Position numbers and translations under genes: made by a program. 10,301 nt of DNA. Source: Candidatus Eiseniibacteriota bacterium (GTDB lineage Bacteria > Eisenbacteria > RBG-16-71-46 > JABDJR01 > JAWXBZ01). How positions within the stretch are numbered: position 1 is the stretch's first letter; the number at the start of each line of letters is the position of its first letter. This document shows, piece after piece, positions 1 through 7,950 of the stretch. The notes beneath the pieces are model-generated. The model made no database searches. It was not told the origin of the DNA and saw nothing but the letters and a program-made list of their open reading frames with translations. Location of the stretch: positions 1 to 10,301 of the forward strand of contig JAWXBZ010000055.1 of assembly GCA_034440375.1 (NCBI GenBank), given 5' to 3'.

Positions 1-517
1 CGCCCTGTCGGGCCTGCAACGGCCGGGCGAATACTTGAAGGAAGTGGGGAGAGCGCTGCACGCCCCGATCAAATCGTTCGGCCTCCTGCGCGAATTCGCC
101 GGCAAGCACATTCAACGGGCCGTCCAACCGCCGCCCATCAAGCACGCGGCCGCGCCGCTGACACGGGATGCCGAACGGCTGTCGCGCCTCACGATGGCTT
201 TCGCCGACCAGTGCGAAGCCGTTCTTCGCCGTCACGGCAAGTCGATCGTCGAGCGCGAGTATCTCCAGAAGCGCCTGGCCGACGCCGCCATCGATCTGTA
301 CGCCGTCTCGGCGTCCATCTCCCGCGCCACCGCCCGCATCGAATCAGCGGGGGAAGAAGGCGCCGCCGACCACGTCCGGCTGGCTCACACCTTCACCAAC
401 CTCGCCGTCCGCCGCATTCGACGCAATCTCCGCATGATCGACCAGAACTCCGACCGCCGTTTCCACGACATCGCCGGCTGGCTGCGCGAGCGCGGGGAGT
501 ACCGACTGGAGAGTTAG
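1..517 (+). CDS. Acyl-CoA dehydrogenase, ACAD9/VLCAD-like C-terminal part (5' partial)
   Basis: Frame is open from base 2 (ALSGLQRPGEYLKEVGRAL...), so the TTG at 35 is internal. The segment 'LRRHGKSIVEREYLQKRLADAAIDLYAVSASISRA' matches the C-terminal extension of VLCAD/ACAD9-type dehydrogenases. Stop TAG at 515-517. Confidence 0.88.
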   Translation, partial: ALSGLQRPGEYLKEVGRALHAPIKSFGLLREFAGKHIQRAVQPPPIKHAAAPLTRDAERLSRLTMAFADQCEAVLRRHGKSIVEREYLQKRLADAAIDLYAVSASISRATARIESAGEEGAADHVRLAHTFTNLAVRRIRRNLRMIDQNSDRRFHDIAGWLRERGEYRLES

Positions 518-957
518 ATGCTTGCGCCGGCGGTGGCCGCTTCGGGCATCCTGAAGAACCGCATCAGTTTGTTCGAGGTGTCGTTCCAGAATTCAACCTG
601 TTCGACGGTAACCTTCAGGATGGGACCCCACAGTTCTTTTGACTTTCGTCGGTCAAACACCAGTTGCGCCGTTCCGAAAATGGACACATACCGATTCTTC
701 CGGCGGAGAGCGTAGCTGAGGTGTACGCGGCTCGAACGAGGAATTTCATCGACGTTCCTGGAATCGACAGCCGTGAAGTACCAGAGATCGCCCTCGGGTT
801 TGAGCTGTTGCGTCGACATGGGCCGACTACTGATTGTGCCGTCTTCTTCGAGGGTTGTGAACATGCAGATGTCCATTTCCTCGATCAACCGGCGTAACTT
901 GGAGATCTGGCCATTTGAGGCCATCGACATGTCCATGGCTGCTTCCATCACTTTCAC
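514..957 (-). CDS. General stress protein 26 / pyridoxamine 5'-phosphate oxidase-like FMN-binding split-barrel protein (possibly internally deleted)
   Basis: Motifs 'ICMFTT..DG.ISSRPMSTQ', 'GDLWYFT', 'YVSIFGTAQLV.D...KELW', 'LKVTVEQVEFW' are typical of the family. GTG at 957 overlaps the upstream stop (GTGA); the true start could be a nearby in-frame ATG. Confidence 0.85.
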   Translation of the reverse strand: MKVMEAAMDMSMASNGQISKLRRLIEEMDICMFTTLEEDGTISSRPMSTQQLKPEGDLWYFTAVDSRNVDEIPRSSRVHLSYALRRKNRYVSIFGTAQLVFDRRKSKELWGPILKVTVEQVEFWNDTSNKLMRFFRMPEAATAGASI

Positions 958-1229
958 CCGTGTACTTTATCGGACCCGGCCACCTTGACAATCTTGTTGT
1001 AGACCCCCATGAGAAGAAGAGGCGCAGCCAACTGTCCGACAAAGAGGGCGCTCTCTTCCTTCCTGGTCTGGTGCAAGATCAGCGAAATTCCCAGAGCGCC
1101 CAATGCGGCCCACAAGAACAGGTCAGAGGGCAGCTTTGCCGTCTGATCCTCGATCTTTCGGGCCACCTCGCCCTCCACGTGCTTGCCGTCGACTCCCAGT
1201 AATCCTGTGCTATCCAACAGTGATTTCAT
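954..1229 (-). CDS. Small conserved hypothetical membrane protein (91 aa)
   Basis: ATG at 1229 preceded by AAAGGAGA. The sequence 'EGEVARKIEDQTAKLPSDLFLWAALG...ALFVGQLAAPLLLMGVYNKIVK' has two hydrophobic stretches and resembles a widespread uncharacterised small-protein family. Its stop overlaps the next start. Confidence 0.85.
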   Translation of the reverse strand: MKSLLDSTGLLGVDGKHVEGEVARKIEDQTAKLPSDLFLWAALGALGISLILHQTRKEESALFVGQLAAPLLLMGVYNKIVKVAGSDKVHG

Positions 1230-2312: not shown

Positions 2313-2672
2313 ATGAAATTTCTATTTTTCGGGTTTGTTTTCGCCGGCTCGATATTCCTGGCCAGCATGTTCTATGGCCCGATCATCAAGAACCACATGC
2401 TCGAAGGCAAAATGATCAAATTGGCCAACGAGCGCCGGCTGAAGGACGACTTTTACCTCCTGCGCGACCTGACATCTTACATCGAAGAGAACGACATCCC
2501 GCTGAAGGCGGAACAGATCTCGTTCCAGCGGCCGTCACCCAAGGAAGTGATCATCAGCGCGAAGTACAAGGTCCACTGCAAGTTCTACTTCCTCGAGAAA
2601 AAGTACGTCTTCAAGCCGACCACGGTGAACGAGATCAACCACGGCCTTGTTCCGGACTTCGCCGCCTACTGA
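2313..2672 (+). CDS. Hypothetical single-pass membrane/exported protein (DUF4845/pilin-like architecture possible)
   Basis: GGAGG RBS at 2302-2306, N-terminal hydrophobic helix, then a helical and a beta-strand-like segment. GC3-biased codons support coding. Confidence 0.7.
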
Positions 2673-2704: not shown

Positions 2705-3769
2705 GTGAACCCGAGACGTTCCGCCCGCAGCCGCCCCGGCAGTCGGGCCGTGCCCTTGAAAGACGAGACGGCACCCACCCGTGAAACGGTCGACGCCCGC
2801 AAGTCGGGCGGCGCGGGCAGCCCCATCATCGTCGGGGCCAGCGTTCGGATGCAGCGCATCTACAACCTGATCGCGCGCATCGCCCCGACCGATTCCAGCG
2901 TCCTGATCGCGGGAGAAAGTGGCACCGGCAAGGAGCTCGTGGCCCGATCCATTCACCTTCAGAGCCGCCGGGCCGATCAGCCATTCATGGCCGTGAACTG
3001 CGGCGCCCTTCCCGAGAACCTTCTTGAAAGTGAACTCTTCGGTCACGTTCGCGGCGCCTTCACCGGCGCCTGGATCGACAAGAAGGGGCTCTTCGACCAG
3101 GCCGACCACGGCACGCTCTTCCTGGACGAGGTTGGTGAGATGTCGCCGGCCAGCCAGGTCAAGCTGCTTCGCGTGCTCCAGGATAACGAGTTCCGCCGGG
3201 TTGGCGGCAACACGACGCTCAAGGTCGATGTCCGTATCCTGGCTGCCACCAATCGGGACCTGCGACAGGCGATGAAAGTCGGTCAATTCCGGGAAGACCT
3301 GTATTACCGGCTCAATGTTTTCCAACTGGACCTGCCGCCGCTGCGTGAGCGGGGCGAGGACATCCCCCTCCTCGCGCACTACTTCCTGGACCTCTACTCC
3401 CGAAGGCTCGGCAAGACCATCCGGCAGTTCGATTCCAAGGCGATGTACCAATTGACGCACTACCCGTGGCCGGGAAACGTCCGCGAGCTGGAAAACATCA
3501 TCCAGCGAGCGACGGCTTTATCCGAGGACGACGAGATCCAGGTGGCCGACCTGCCGCGTCACCTGCGGGAGGCGACCATGCCCCAGATCGGTGCGCCATC
3601 GAGCCCGCCGCTGGTCCTTCCGGAGGGGCTCCGCCTGGAGGAGCTCGAACGACTTTATATTGAGCAGACTTTGGCCCGGGTGGATGGAAATGTGAGCCGC
3701 ACGGCGAGGCTCCTTGGTATCTCAAGGTCGACAATGTGGCGCAAAATGAAGCAATTTGGGCTTGAATGA
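2705..3769 (+). CDS. Sigma54-dependent transcriptional activator (bEBP: AAA+ domain plus Fis-type HTH) lacking an N-terminal sensory domain
   Basis: Walker [22 protein letters not shown], Walker [29 protein letters not shown] and C-terminal HTH '[22 protein letters not shown]'. Only about 40 low-complexity residues precede the AAA+ domain. Start codon uncertain. Confidence 0.95.
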
Positions 3770-3774
3770 CCCGC

Positions 3775-3787
3775 TAACTTATTGATT
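3775..3787 (-). promoter_or_regulatory. IHF-binding consensus
   Basis: Minus strand AATCAATAAGTTA matches WATCAANNNNTTR exactly, at the edge of the AT-rich intergenic region. Confidence 0.55.
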
Positions 3788-3798
3788 TTCGGTCGAGC

Positions 3799-3859
3799 TG
3801 ATTCAATCTGGATCATGAATTGCTTTAAAGTGAAACACTTTTTGATATCACTTGAACAG
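3799..3859. promoter_or_regulatory. Putative upstream activator sequences: three 17-bp TG-N3-CA-N3-TG-N3-CA-type sites at 22-bp period
   Basis: TGATTCA-ATC-TGGATCA (3799-3815), TGCTTTA-AAG-TGAAACA (3821-3837) and the more degenerate TGATATC-ACT-TGAACAG (3843-3859). They lie about 110-175 bp upstream of the predicted sigma54 TSS. Confidence 0.55.
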
Positions 3860-3945
3860 ATCCAGAGACCTGACGATCCTACTAGAGCATCTATCTAATT
3901 AATTTAAAACAACTTATAGCCGCAGATCACTATCAAAAGCAGCTC

Positions 3946-3961
3946 TGGCACACTCCCTGCG
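3946..3961 (+). promoter_or_regulatory. Sigma54 (-24/-12) promoter of the hsp20-dnaK cluster
   Basis: TGGCACACTCCCTGCG has GG at 3947-3948 and GC at 3959-3960 (GG-N10-GC). Predicted TSS about 3972, 48 nt before the hsp20 ATG. A bEBP gene, UAS-like sites and an IHF consensus lie upstream. Confidence 0.72.
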
Positions 3962-4019
3962 TTGTCACACTCCCAGTGCTGCACTAGTTTAGCAAGGCCC
4001 ATTCTGGAGGTGTTTCAAA

Positions 4020-4460
4020 ATGACGCTTGTCCGTTACCGCCCCTTTGGGGGTACGCTGCCTGTGTCCGAGGAAGTGAACCAGATGCTCGAATCCTTCTTC
4101 GCCGGTCCGGGTGCCCGTCCAGTCCGTCGGGTGGCCTGGTCCCCACCCTCGGATGTTCGTGAGACCGAGACCCATTTTGTCGTGCGAGCTGAAGTACCGG
4201 GCGTCGGCAAGGATTCGATCACGATCAACCTGACCAACAATACGCTCGTCATCAAGGGCGAGAAGAAACAGGAGCTTGACGAGACGAAGGGGCAGTGGCA
4301 CCACACCGAGCGGACCTGGGGTTCGTTCGAGCGGAGCATCACCCTGCCAACCCGGGTGAACGGTGAGCAGATCACCGCACGCTGCATCGATGGCGTCCTC
4401 GAAATCACGATTCCAAAGGCCGACGAGGCCAGGCCGCGCGAGATCAAGATCGAGGCGTAG
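4020..4460 (+). CDS. Small heat-shock protein, Hsp20/alpha-crystallin family
   Basis: 'WSPPSDVRETETHFVVRAEVPGV', 'LVIKGEKK', 'ERTWGSFERSITLP', 'DGVLEITIPK' and C-terminal IXI motif (IKI). RBS GGAGG at 4006-4010. Confidence 0.96.
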   Translation: MTLVRYRPFGGTLPVSEEVNQMLESFFAGPGARPVRRVAWSPPSDVRETETHFVVRAEVPGVGKDSITINLTNNTLVIKGEKKQELDETKGQWHHTERTWGSFERSITLPTRVNGEQITARCIDGVLEITIPKADEARPREIKIEA

Positions 4461-4492
4461 GATCCAACTCAACGCTCGACCCTGACAAACGA

Positions 4493-4524
4493 GAGGCGGC
4501 CGGCAGCGTCCGGTCGCCTCCTTT
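4493..4524 (+). terminator. GC-rich stem-loop between hsp20 and dnaK (partial terminator or mRNA stabiliser)
   Basis: GAGGCGGCCGG-CAGCGT-CCGGTCGCCTC forms an 11-bp stem with one G-U pair, followed by a short CTTT tail. Confidence 0.5.
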
Positions 4525-4563
4525 ACATATATCCGCACACTGGACTGAAACGAGGGAAATGAC

Positions 4564-6456
4564 ATGGGAAAGATCATCGGCATCGACCTGGGCACCACCA
4601 ATTCATGCGTGTCCGTGATGGAAGGCGGCGAACCGGTCGTGATTCCGAACTCGGAAGGCGCCCGCACCACGCCGTCCGTCGTCGCATTCACGAAATCGGG
4701 TGAGCGACTGGTGGGCCAGCAGGCCAAGCGCCAGGCCGTCACCAACCCGAAAAATACGGTCTATTCGATCAAGCGCTTCATGGGTCGGGCCTACGATGAA
4801 GTCGGTGGCGAGATCAAGGAAGTTCCCTACGAGGTTACCAAGGGCGCCAACGGTCAGGTGGCGGTCAAGATCGGCGACAAGGAGTACACGCCTGCTGAAC
4901 TCTCGGCCATAATTTTAATGAAGATGAAGCAGACAGCCGAGGATTACCTGGGCCAGAAGGTGACCGAGGCGGTCATCACCGTTCCCGCCTACTTCAACGA
5001 CACACAGCGCCAGGCCACCAAGGACGCCGGTCGAATCGCCGGGCTCGACGTCAAGCGCATCATCAATGAGCCGACGGCCGCCGCGCTCGCTTACGGGCTG
5101 GACAAGAAGAAGAACGAGATCGTGGCGGTCTACGATCTGGGTGGCGGCACGTTCGACATCTCGGTTCTCGAAATCTCGGAAGACGGCGTTTTCCAGGTCA
5201 AGTCGACCAACGGCGACACCCACCTGGGCGGCGACGACTTCGACCAGCGGATCATCGATTGGCTGGCGGACGAATTCAAGAAGCTCGAGGGGATCGACCT
5301 CCGAAACGATGCCATGGCCCTGCAGCGGCTCAAGGAAGCGGCAGAAAAAGCCAAGATCGAGCTCTCGTCCTCGATGCAGACCGACATCAATCTGCCGTTC
5401 ATCACGGCCGATCAGAACGGCCCCAAGCATCTGAACCTGGCATTGACGCGCGCGCGGTTGGAGCAACTCGTGGCCGACCTCGTTGAGGGCACCGCCGAAC
5501 CGTGCCGGAAGGCCATGGCCGACGCCAAGGTCACCGCCAGCCAGATCGACGAGGTCATTCTCGTCGGCGGATCGACGCGCATGCCAAAGGTGCAGGAACT
5601 GGTCAAGAAGCTGTTCGAGAAGGAGCCCCACAAGGGGGTCAACCCGGACGAGGTGGTGGCGGTGGGCGCGGCCATTCAGGGCGCCGTGCTGGCGGGGGAC
5701 GTCAAGGATGTTCTCCTTCTGGATGTGACGCCGCTGTCGCTGGGCATCGAGACGCTGGGCGGTGTGTTCACGCGGCTCATCGACCGCAACACGACGATCC
5801 CGACCAAGAAGATGGAGACCTTTTCCACGGCCGCCGACAGCAAGACCGCCGTCGATATCAAGGTGTTCCAGGGTGAGCGTGAGATGGCTGCCAGCAACAA
5901 GCAGATCGGCCACTTCCAGCTTGATGGAATTCCGCCCGCCCCGCGCGGCATGCCGCAGGTCGAAGTGACGTTCGACATCGATGCCAACGGCATCCTGTCG
6001 GTGTCGGCCCGGGACAAGGCCACCAACAAGGAGCAGAGCATCAAGATCCAGGCCTCGTCCGGCCTGACCGAGGACGAGATCAAGAACATGGTCCGGGACG
6101 CCGAGTCCCATTCCGTTGAGGACAAGCAGCGGCGCGCGGAGATCGAGGCCCGCAACAAGGCGGACAGCCTGGCCTACGAGACCGAAAAGCAGCTCAAGGA
6201 GTCGGGTGACAAGCTCGACGCCGACACGAAGGCCAAAGTCGAGGCCGCCGTGGCGCGCCTGCGCGAAGCGCTGAAGACCGACAACGTCGAAGAGATCAAC
6301 TCAGCGGCGGAGAGCCTGACGATGATCTGGCACGAGGCCGCCGAGAAGATGTACAAGTCGGCCGGTACCGGACCGGGCGGCCCGGGACCGGATGGCGATG
6401 CCAGCACTCCGCCGAAAGACAAGCCGGTCGATGCCGATTTCGAGGTGGTCGACTAG
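4564..6456 (+). CDS. dnaK: Molecular chaperone DnaK (Hsp70)
   Basis: '[12 protein letters not shown]', '[10 protein letters not shown]', '[13 protein letters not shown]', linker '[13 protein letters not shown]' and C-terminal 'VDADFEVVD'. Carries the N-terminal insert typical of diderm DnaK. Confidence 0.99.
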
Positions 6457-6511
6457 CGTTCGAGCGAGTGCCCGTGTATCACCGGCATCGTCCCAATTGA
6501 CAATCAGGATG

Positions 6512-6549
6512 GCGGGCGGGGCTCCGATGGGGGTTCCGCCCGCTCTTTT
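6512..6549 (+). terminator. Rho-independent terminator-like hairpin after dnaK
   Basis: GCGGGCGGGGCTCC-GATG-GGGGTTCCGCCCGC forms a 14-bp stem with three G-U pairs, followed by TCTTTT. Confidence 0.72.
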
Positions 6550-6564
6550 CGGGGAGGATCGATC

Positions 6565-6954
6565 ATGCTCGTACGGTTGATGGTGTCGTGGATTCATCCC
6601 CAGGTGATGGTGTTCCTGGGCAAGGTCAAAAATCCGGCAACGGACACGATGGAACGGAATCTTGATGCGGCCCGGACGTTGATTGACGTCCTGGCCGAGC
6701 TGCAGACGAAAACCGAGGGACGCCTCGATGCCGAAGATCAGCGCCATCTCCAGTACGTCCTGACCGAGCTGCGAATGAACTGGGTCGATGAGTTGGCGAA
6801 GGGTGAGGCGGCGGTGGATGGGGGCGCAGGGGAAGCCCCGGCCGAGCCGGTCCCCGAAGTGTCACCTGAGCCCTCGGTCGAGGCGGCCCCGGAAACGTCG
6901 CCCGAGCCTTCGGCCGAAGCGGCCCCCAAGGCTCCGCCACTGGCGCCCGAATGA
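6565..6954 (+). CDS. DUF1844-like protein with Pro/Glu/Ala-rich C-terminal tail
   Basis: 'LGKVKNPAT...NLDAARTLIDVLAELQTKTEGRLDAED...L..VLTELRMNWV' fits the DUF1844 pattern (LG..NP..G...L..A...ID.L..L..KT.GNL..EE). RBS GGGGAGGA at 6551-6558. Confidence 0.85.
   Translation: MLVRLMVSWIHPQVMVFLGKVKNPATDTMERNLDAARTLIDVLAELQTKTEGRLDAEDQRHLQYVLTELRMNWVDELAKGEAAVDGGAGEAPAEPVPEVSPEPSVEAAPETSPEPSAEAAPKAPPLAPE
6853..6924 (+). repeat. Two imperfect 36-bp coding repeats (PEVSPEPSVEAA / PETSPEPSAEAA)
   Basis: Units at 6853-6888 and 6889-6924 share 10 of 12 residues. Confidence 0.75.
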
Positions 6955-6969
6955 GTATGATGGTGGAAC

Positions 6970-7950
6970 ATGGCGAAACGCGACTATTACGAGGTGCTGG
7001 GCGTAGCCGAAAACGCCACTCCGGATCAGGTCAAGAAGGCTTTTCGGACCCTGGCCAAGAAGTACCACCCGGACGCCAACCGGAACGATCCATCGGCTGA
7101 ATCCAGGTTCAAGGAGGCGGGTGAAGCGTTCGAGGTGCTTTCCGATCCGGAGAAGCGGCAACAGTACGATCGGATGAAGCGCTACGGCGCCGGGTTGAGC
7201 GGTCGCGGCGGGTTTTCCGGCGGTGGTTTCCCCGAGGGGTCCGAGGGATTCGATCCGGGGACGTTCCGATCCGGCGGGTTTCGCGGTGAAACGATTGACC
7301 TGAGCGATCTCTTCAGCGGCGGCGGCGGCCGCGGTACGGGCGATATTTTCGAGCACCTGTTCGGCGGCCGTCAGCAGCAGGCCGAGCCGGAACCCAATCG
7401 GGATATCGAAGTCAGCCTCAATGTTCCCGCCCACGTGGCCGCCAAGGGGGGCTTCGCCCGGTTCAGCGTACGGCGCCACGCGGCCTGCCGAACCTGCGAT
7501 GGCACGGGCGCCGCGCCTGGCCAATCCGCCGTAACCTGCAAGACCTGCAGCGGGCGCGGCAGCGTCGTGCAGAACCGCGGCGGTTTTTCAGTCAGCCGCA
7601 CCTGCCCGCGCTGCCTGGGCCGGGGCAAGGTCATCGAGAAGCCGTGTCCGGCCTGCGAGGGAGAGGGAATGCGCTACGACGAGCGCAAGTTGCGGGTGAA
7701 GATTCCCGCCACAGCCTCGAACGGCCAGAAACTCCGACTGCGCGGCCAGGGACACGCCGGCCTGGAAGGCGGACCAGCGGGTGATCTCATCGTGACGCTG
7801 CTCGTCCTGCCGGCCGCGGCTGACGCCAGCAAGGCCGCGCCCAACGCCAGCAAGACCGGGACCGACGATGGAAAGGCCGCGCCCGACGACAGCAAGACCG
7901 GGACCGACGATGGAAAGGCCGCGCCCGACGACAACAAGGCCGGAGCCTGA
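6970..7950 (+). CDS. dnaJ: DnaJ class A co-chaperone, C-terminally truncated (J domain, G/F region, zinc finger, CTD I; no CTD II or dimerisation helix)
   Basis: 'KRDYYEVLGV', HPD motif, G/F-rich linker, four CxxCxGxG motifs (CRTCDGTG, CKTCSGRG, CPRCLGRG, CPACEGEG) and 'LRLRGQG...GPAGDLIV', followed by a repeat-encoded tail. Confidence 0.92.
   Translation: MAKRDYYEVLGVAENATPDQVKKAFRTLAKKYHPDANRNDPSAESRFKEAGEAFEVLSDPEKRQQYDRMKRYGAGLSGRGGFSGGGFPEGSEGFDPGTFRSGGFRGETIDLSDLFSGGGGRGTGDIFEHLFGGRQQQAEPEPNRDIEVSLNVPAHVAAKGGFARFSVRRHAACRTCDGTGAAPGQSAVTCKTCSGRGSVVQNRGGFSVSRTCPRCLGRGKVIEKPCPACEGEGMRYDERKLRVKIPATASNGQKLRLRGQGHAGLEGGPAGDLIVTLLVLPAAADASKAAPNASKTGTDDGKAAPDDSKTGTDDGKAAPDDNKAGA
7822..7947 (+). 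repeat. Tandem repeat: six 21-bp units with 42-bp higher-order alternation
   Basis: GACGCCAGCAAGGCCGCGCCC / AACGCCAGCAAGACCGGGACC / GACGATGGAAAGGCCGCGCCC / GACGACAGCAAGACCGGGACC / GACGATGGAAAGGCCGCGCCC / GACGACAACAAGGCCGGAGCC, ending immediately at the dnaJ stop TGA. Confidence 0.95.

Follow-up and report, generated by a model that had tools for sequence, protein, structure and literature searches.

We analysed a 10,301-nt stretch of DNA from a Candidatus Eiseniibacteriota bacterium (the window), which is the entire 10.3-kb contig C55 of a 3.96-Mb assembly with a completeness of 93.7%. The window probably carries a dedicated, enhancer-dependent sigma-54 transcription unit for the chaperone genes hsp20 and dnaK, to which an activator, an enhancer and a proposed feedback belong. 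The locus lies on the plus strand and begins with the gene of a sensor-less sigma-54 activator, a bacterial enhancer-binding protein (bEBP) of 354 aa (2705-3769). A 250-bp spacer (3770-4019) is followed by hsp20, which encodes a small heat-shock protein and is the first gene after the promoter (4020-4460; Pfam HSP20, 2.2e-24), by dnaK (4564-6456; Pfam HSP70, 2.5e-268), by the gene of a DUF1844 protein (6565-6954; Pfam, 2.3e-18) and by that of a short DnaJ-type co-chaperone with a J domain, a zinc finger and a truncated C-terminal domain (6970-7950; Pfam). This gene order had been proposed in an earlier reading of the same DNA (the original prediction), and all of its members were identified by Pfam. 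The AT-rich character of the spacer was likewise borne out, with a GC content of 0.42 compared to 0.60-0.70 for the flanking genes.

The predicted sigma-54 promoter, TGGCACACTCCCTGC, is located at 3946-3960 on the plus strand, 59 nt ahead of hsp20. Its GG (3947-3948, positions -25/-24) and GC (3959-3960, positions -13/-12) are spaced by 10 nt, as is characteristic of a sigma-54 promoter, and transcription is predicted to start at about 3972, which leaves 48 nt to the hsp20 start codon. Apart from TGGCACACTCCCTGC, no place in the window matches TGGCAC-N5-YTGC exactly; allowing up to one mismatch, four matches were found compared to 1.46 expected. Genome-wide, the strict motif applied to the relatives below (TGGCA[CT]-N5-NTGC) occurs at 105 sites on both strands, which corresponds to 0.004 matches expected per 330-nt spacer. 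Directly downstream, at 3963-3979 (plus strand), the promoter 17-mer is repeated in tandem in a degenerate form, which is identical at 13 of 17 positions, begins with TGTCAC and has the GG changed to GT. This copy is specific to the window, as none was seen in the nearest relative. A possible RNA thermometer in the hsp20 leader was ruled out, the fold of 3970-4030 having a z-score of +0.51 and no unusual structure.

The conservation of this arrangement was assessed by searching for the activator in 40 relatives from 15 families of the same class as the window. Two sets of loci were evaluated, namely 29 best-hit loci from the class and 10 further loci drawn from 101 sampled genomes of the phylum; since all of these relatives are kin, promoter counts over them do not represent independent samples. 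The original prediction had asked whether the synteny of the bEBP gene with hsp20 and dnaK recurs in related genomes. Genes for hsp20 and/or dnaK were found downstream on the same strand in 18 of the 29 best-hit loci and in 6 of the 10 further loci (24/39); hsp20 is missing from about half of the linked loci. As a control, 20 bEBP loci of other phyla were inspected, none of which has hsp20 or dnaK within 4 kb. The promoter itself is also maintained. The strict pattern TGGCA[CT]-N5-NTGC is present in the spacer of 14 of the 18 adjoining loci and a relaxed form in 3 more, and in the second set the relaxed pattern was found in 5 of the 6 adjoining loci. GG and TGC are invariant across 23 aligned orthologous promoters. 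The GG-N10-GC promoter of the original prediction thus stands, as the sole exact match in the window and at a place that is kept in relatives. That prediction had also named a genome without rpoN and a motif not conserved in front of orthologous genes as outcomes that would speak against it. The genome carries rpoN, seen as a 541-aa open frame on contig C93 (Sigma54_DBD, 216.5 bits), so that at the level of sequence both tests came out in its favour.

Upstream of the promoter, the related spacers have a 17-bp palindrome in common, TGTTTCA-N3-TGAAACA, which usually occurs as a pair with a distance of 22-25 bp. In the window, two imperfect copies were found as candidate enhancer sites (upstream activator sequences). 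Site 1, TGATTCAATCTGGATCA, is located at 3799-3815 and carries three mismatches; site 2, TGCTTTAAAGTGAAACA, is located at 3821-3837 and carries two. The sites are 22 bp apart. Measured from the T of TGGCAC, they are centred 139 and 117 nt upstream, which corresponds to about -165 and -143 relative to the predicted transcription start. Site 2 is among just three sites with up to two mismatches in the whole 3.96-Mb genome. Similar positions were observed for 11 other loci, where the centres are found 136-143 and 112-118 nt before TGGCAC, while in two smaller groups of loci the enhancer sites are about 20 nt or about 12 nt closer to the promoter. Promoter motif and paired palindromes at fixed spacing were found across at least 15 families. 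The pair falls within the approximately 80-200 bp from the promoter at which upstream activator sites are located, and it would be the bEBP that binds there. In several loci, the TGA stop codon of the activator gene forms part of a half-site. A possible third, distal site, TGGCGCAAAATGAAGCA, lies at 3737-3753 within the end of the bEBP coding region and has four mismatches. Its distance to the promoter of about 200 nt equals that of a site in locus L031, which is also placed in the last codons of the bEBP gene, and that of a third site in locus L039, which is non-coding. The third site of the window may be a by-product of WRKMK codons. Of the three phased palindromes originally proposed, two are therefore clear 17-bp imperfect palindromes, and the third is a possible site in coding sequence.

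In one family of relatives (f2), the activator gene is not linked to the chaperone operon. The hsp20-dnaK-DUF1844-dnaJ operon of this family nevertheless keeps TGGCACG-N4-CTGC in all five genomes examined. The palindromes are located 137-138 and 113-114 nt upstream in four of them, which are among the 11 other loci mentioned above, and 157 and 116 nt upstream in the fifth (L104). Since the f2 operons keep promoter and enhancer with the activator encoded elsewhere, the cis elements are part of the chaperone operon rather than a side effect of the 3′ end of the activator gene. A separate observation concerns the surroundings of the orthologous activator in f2, where it is followed by a gene for a lipoprotein-like protein (L032-L035 and L038). 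In L038 (genome G008), this gene is preceded by a motif of its own, TGGCACAGAGCCTGCT, without palindromes of the dnaK type.

The original prediction also included an exact match to the consensus of integration host factor (IHF). This match is present at 3775-3787 on the minus strand and is the only exact one in the window, but it is situated 5′ of the enhancer pair instead of between enhancer and promoter, and it is not conserved; as judged by eye, the nearest relative showed no counterpart at that position. At least one exact match was also obtained in 14 of 200 shuffled versions of the window. No IHF match with up to one mismatch was found in the enhancer-promoter spacer of the window, and such matches occur in 9 of 23 related enhancer-promoter spacers. 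The genome encodes two proteins of the HU/IHF family. Judging from its position and its lack of conservation, the IHF site is probably not functional.

The activator consists of a Sigma54_activat domain (Pfam, 1.5e-72), an AAA lid and a helix-turn-helix (HTH) domain of the Fis type (HTH_8). The GAFTGA motif, which had been noted originally, is indeed intact in the translation (HVRGAFTGA), and Walker A is also present. In 28 aligned orthologues, the loop residues G117, F119, T120 and A122 are invariant. The tail ahead of the AAA+ domain comprises just 24-41 aa, the start codon being uncertain between 2705 and 2756, and the tails of the orthologues are likewise short and unconserved. In all 20 control bEBPs of other phyla, at least 142 codons of open frame precede the AAA+ domain. 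We also considered that an N-terminal sensor domain might be hidden by a frameshift. As the open frame further upstream is occupied by a conserved gene for a small protein, which is distinct from the activator gene and read in a different frame, a hidden sensor domain was ruled out.

To which family the activator belongs can be read from its closest relatives. The best hit per relative is 52-67% identical to the activator of the window, while paralogues are mostly 47-53% identical, and the genome contains 19 strong bEBP matches. In a quick IQ-TREE phylogeny of 74 AAA+-HTH segments, for which support values are from the Shimodaira-Hasegawa-like approximate likelihood ratio test (SH-aLRT) only, all 29 best hits fall into a single clade (SH-aLRT 99). 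It contains 19 proteins encoded beside dnaK, 7 from family f2 and 3 other unlinked ones, and it leaves out 17 paralogues from the same genome, the 20 bEBPs of other phyla and 8 rows designated 'second bEBP'. The latter represent a further, phylogenetically distinct bEBP, which is encoded 1-3 kb past the dnaK operon in 8 relatives (L081, L083, L085, L086, L089, L090, L091 and L093) and groups with the copy on contig C34 of the window genome. The activator scores below every NCBIfam equivalog cut-off. This includes PspF, for which 280.8 bits were obtained against TIGR02974 (cut-off 443.55) and 229.6 bits against PRK11608 (cut-off 529). Among solved structures, its AAA+ domain is nearer to ZraR, NifA and FleQ (1e-88 to 1e-82) than to PspF (1e-58). 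A match at E ≤ 1e-100 was found in 74 of the 101 genomes of the phylum sample, a tally that includes one unpublished genome (G046) on which none of the other results depends, and there is nearly always one per genome. No clear orthologue was found in the one 'uncultured Bacteroidetes' genome that was searched, and a search of genome contigs for related loci returned just ordinary NtrC-type paralogues of other phyla. By phylogeny and domain architecture, the activator is a member of a distinct clade of sensor-less bEBPs.

To place the locus among the other chaperone genes, the whole genome was examined. The dnaK gene of the window is the only full-length Hsp70 gene, which answers the question about further copies raised originally. 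The gene hrcA, which had not been found in this stretch, is indeed not encoded in the window, but the genome contains it; it is followed by grpE and a full-length dnaJ on another contig (G000:C64:17526-20700). An operator-like element resembling CIRCE (controlling inverted repeat of chaperone expression), YTGGCACTC-N9-GAGTGCCAR, precedes hrcA-grpE-dnaJ and both groESL operons. As had been stated for this locus, CIRCE is lacking there, since a genome scan with up to four mismatches gave no site on contig C55. The proposed look for rpoH gave a best TIGR02392 match of 140.7 bits compared to a cut-off of 323.1, with sigma-32-type promoters not included in the scans. Neither a sigma-54 motif nor an enhancer was found at groESL or hrcA-grpE, and none of sigma-54 motif, enhancer site and CIRCE-like element was found at clpB, at a second clp gene, at hsp20b-lon or at lon. 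No htpG was found in the genome (completeness 93.66%). The hsp20-dnaK locus of the window is the sole locus in the genome that combines two enhancer sites with a sigma-54 motif. Two other places were considered and judged to lie outside the regulon: C85:13818 is located within a coding region, and C148:31966 has a single weak site ahead of the gene of a small exported protein. In this genome, the circuit thus appears to serve only hsp20-dnaK. Because CIRCE-like operators are found at hrcA-grpE-dnaJ as well as at the two groESL operons, the Hsp70 system is divided over two regulons: on the basis of the cis elements, DnaK, Hsp20, the DUF1844 protein and the short J-protein are behind sigma-54, and GrpE, canonical DnaJ and GroESL are behind HrcA-type operators. 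The idea of a self-contained sigma-54/bEBP circuit is consequently retained for dnaK, but not for the chaperones as a whole, as an HrcA/CIRCE-like regulon runs both groESL operons and hrcA-grpE-dnaJ.

Within the chaperone locus, two RNA hairpins on the plus strand stand out. A stable hairpin of 11 bp between hsp20 and dnaK (4493-4520) has a predicted energy of -22.7 kcal/mol (z = -4.5), and a terminator-like hairpin of 15 bp followed by UCUUUUC (6511-6544) has about -32 kcal/mol (z = -4.45); in both cases, none of 200 shuffles was as good. The latter is positioned directly 3′ of dnaK and just ahead of the ribosome-binding site of the DUF1844 gene. These hairpins make it probable that DUF1844 and the short dnaJ are expressed at a lower level via read-through. 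It is plausible that hsp20-dnaK-DUF1844-dnaJ forms a single operon. The short DnaJ reaches 262.1 bits against the DnaJ_bact profile (cut-off 377.2) and covers profile positions 1-258 of 354; the final ~100 positions of this profile are thus missing, and the protein has a low-complexity repeat at its end. Among 16 further class loci with a full dnaK, 6 have DUF1844 behind it, as do all five f2 loci. Its gene is often found between dnaK and dnaJ, and it also occurs in Deinococcus and Thermotoga, whose control genomes gave no sigma-54 match. DUF1844 may be an Hsp70-associated factor. A role as a PspA-like anti-activator was considered and rejected, because no DUF1844 was found in 7 of 41 relatives, its gene is in many cases not linked to dnaK, and the Deinococcus and Thermotoga controls have it as well.

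Combining these data, we propose the following mechanism. Sigma-54 RNA polymerase would bind TGGCAC-N5-CTGC (3946-3960) and start transcription near 3972. The sensor-less bEBP would act as the family-specific activator, with dimers that presumably bind the two palindromes about 143 and 165 bp upstream of the transcription start, and the AT-rich spacer would allow the bound oligomer to loop to the promoter. With its Walker A and GAFTGA motifs, the bEBP could then drive the ATP-dependent opening of the closed complex, which would turn on hsp20 and dnaK, while the hairpins after both genes would probably act as attenuators for the transcription of DUF1844 and the short dnaJ. For an activator that lacks a sensor, activity has to be controlled in trans. 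No gene product other than DnaK is found with the activator in every case, and for this reason titration of DnaK is the signal that we favour. DnaK, together with a J-protein, would keep the activator in an inactive state, from which it would be freed when unfolded proteins recruit DnaK, resulting in a homeostatic feedback. The activator itself would then be the switch for proteotoxic stress, with DnaK and the J-protein blocking the active hexamer until unfolded proteins release it. By analogy to other chaperone feedback loops, we put this part forward tentatively and consider it possible rather than probable. A loose precedent for a chaperone acting on sigma-54 expression is found in Herminiimonas, where dnaJ is needed for the sigma-54-dependent aox operon (PMC2848651).

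Several observations weigh against the proposed circuit. One adjoining locus, L051, has only the -24 half of the promoter without a recognisable -12 element, and L121 of the second set is without the promoter pattern. The activator orthologue is not located beside dnaK in family f2 and in 7 other genomes. The enhancer sites of the window are degenerate, as seen from their mismatches, and what connects the bEBP with the palindromes is co-location and co-conservation, the Fis-type HTH being too generic for assigning a binding specificity. The unconserved N-terminal tails of the orthologues give no specific support for DnaK titration. Finally, a second promoter may exist besides the sigma-54 one, as the E. 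coli consensus of the sigma-70 scan may not suit this phylum.

The last point is also the basis of an explanation in which the -24/-12 motif is not a working promoter at all. Transcription of dnaK would then come from a housekeeping-type promoter that has escaped recognition in the AT-rich spacer, or would read through from the bEBP gene, and the bEBP would have another target. A simple scan of the window for sigma-70-type promoters gave none; the consensus used was that of E. coli, from which that of the main sigma factor of this phylum may differ. Such an explanation is nonetheless highly improbable in the light of the fixed spacing between motif and paired palindromes across families. Both elements persist at hsp20-dnaK where the bEBP gene is found elsewhere, and no other locus of the genome combines them. 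Accepting a sigma-54 circuit, the activator could be constitutively active or could itself be a thermosensor, with control by abundance, proteolysis or temperature-dependent oligomerisation and without an anti-activator. Control partly via abundance is known for HrpR/HrpS. For the activator described here, this seems rather unlikely. No conserved partner was found besides DnaK, and DUF1844 is an unlikely dedicated partner in view of its distribution described above, both of which agree with an activator that works by itself. On the other hand, an ATP-dependent enhancer system would be pointless for a stress gene if the bEBP were always active.

It is also conceivable that the circuit is real and that its signal is envelope or membrane stress, as in Psp systems, with control by a membrane protein or another partner. 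A candidate for this is encoded immediately upstream of the activator, where the bEBP start is preceded at a distance of 32 nt by a gene for a small membrane-anchored protein of 119 aa with an N-terminal membrane helix (2313-2672, plus strand), for which neither Pfam nor NCBIfam gave a family. This gene is probably co-transcribed with the activator gene, as suggested by this short distance. Homologues directly upstream of the bEBP were found in the same order only (8 loci) and in families f1 and f2 only. There, the gene stays with the bEBP gene even where dnaK is located elsewhere, which speaks for such a partner, as does the sensor-less, PspF-like architecture of the activator. In an AlphaFold2 model of the protein (pLDDT 80), a long helix at the N-terminus and a second helix are combined with a sheet of four strands. 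A fold search of the PDB with this model gave no match at E ≤ 0.001, and an Atlas search gave a weak lead to DUF4845 only, from 31% of the members of one cluster. In addition, blood agar, high osmotic pressure and exposure to plasma induced the sigma-54 promoters of Flavobacterium psychrophilum (PMC9723704). However, the membrane protein is restricted to f1 and f2, whereas the link between bEBP and dnaK spans the class. Moreover, the outputs are cytoplasmic chaperones, and no PspA-type gene was found among the open reading frames (ORFs) of the window in a Pfam scan, the rest of the genome not having been searched for PspA. Membrane stress as the signal is thus quite unlikely, and DnaK titration is retained as the preferred signal.

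The remaining part of the window contains further genes. An ORF of 227 aa without family (1588-2271; ORF list, Pfam) and a large membrane protein, also without family, are encoded on the plus strand. A second sigma-54-like motif, CGGCACGCCTCTTGCT, was found at 1276-1291 on the minus strand, 46 nt ahead of the ribosome-binding site and ATG of the ORF at 957-1229 (minus strand). This ORF encodes a small hydrophobic protein of 91 aa and is followed by a PNPOx-like gene of the 'general stress protein 26' type (514-957, minus strand). There is no enhancer of the dnaK type near this motif.

Textbook accounts of bacterial heat-shock control usually feature sigma-32, HrcA, HspR or CtsR. Feedback by DnaK on sigma-32 in E. 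coli or on HspR in Streptomyces, and by GroEL in HrcA/CIRCE systems, follows the same homeostatic logic as the loop that we propose. Those systems act via a factor of the sigma-70 family or via repressors, whereas here the target of the feedback would be an AAA+ activator of sigma-54. PspF of E. coli has no sensor domain, adjoins the sigma-54 operon that it serves and uses two upstream sites, and the regulated product can feed back. The bEBP of the window resembles it in being sensor-less, in its place beside the served sigma-54 operon, in the two upstream sites and in a possible feedback by the product. On the other hand, it is not an orthologue of PspF, as seen from its scores below the PspF cut-offs, and the output consists of Hsp70 and a small heat-shock protein instead of a membrane-repair protein.

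Closer to the function of this locus, genome-wide mapping of 5′ ends in F. psychrophilum revealed sigma-54 (SM4) promoters at groESL, lon, dnaK, grpE-dnaJ, htpG and clpB (Guerin et al. 2021; PMC9723704). The view of the original prediction that sigma-54 is not the usual mode for dnaK is thus to be softened, since these mapped transcription starts make such control less unusual than stated. In both organisms, which lie outside the Pseudomonadota, a -24/-12 promoter is found directly upstream of dnaK, mapped in F. psychrophilum and predicted here. In F. psychrophilum, this is a broad class of chaperone promoters, to which no activator or enhancer was assigned. The genome of the window has no broad sigma-54 proteostasis regulon of the Bacteroidota type: of the chaperone and protease loci inspected, only hsp20-dnaK has a predicted sigma-54 promoter, groESL and grpE-dnaJ have CIRCE-like elements, and a candidate activator with its sites can be named. 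A survey from 2025 with position-specific scoring matrices found sigma-54-type promoters enriched at chaperone clusters of orthologous groups in Planctomycetota and Bacteroidota (PMC12316311). It is computational like our analysis and concerns non-proteobacterial phyla, with such promoters at genes for DnaK, DnaJ, GrpE, GroEL/ES and IbpA. The phylum of the window, a dedicated activator and an enhancer motif are not mentioned in the passages of that survey considered here.

In the literature outside subscription-only sources, we found no description of such a circuit in Eisenbacteria, of a dedicated sensor-less activator of dnaK or of its binding site. Our comparisons therefore support the view that sigma-54-dependent control of chaperones as such is known, and that its narrowing to hsp20-dnaK with a nameable activator and enhancer is new. 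The locus shows a clean division of labour with the HrcA/CIRCE-like regulon of the same genome. Moreover, one sensor-less activator, two 17-bp sites, one promoter and one operon represent a compact set of parts that could be rebuilt in E. coli, and the rebuilt set would address how protein damage is perceived by an activator that has no sensor. If titration of DnaK were true, the loop known from sigma-32 would have been rebuilt on an AAA+ activator of sigma-54 and would operate beside a loop of HrcA and GroEL, so that Hsp70 and Hsp60 would be sensed separately in one cell.

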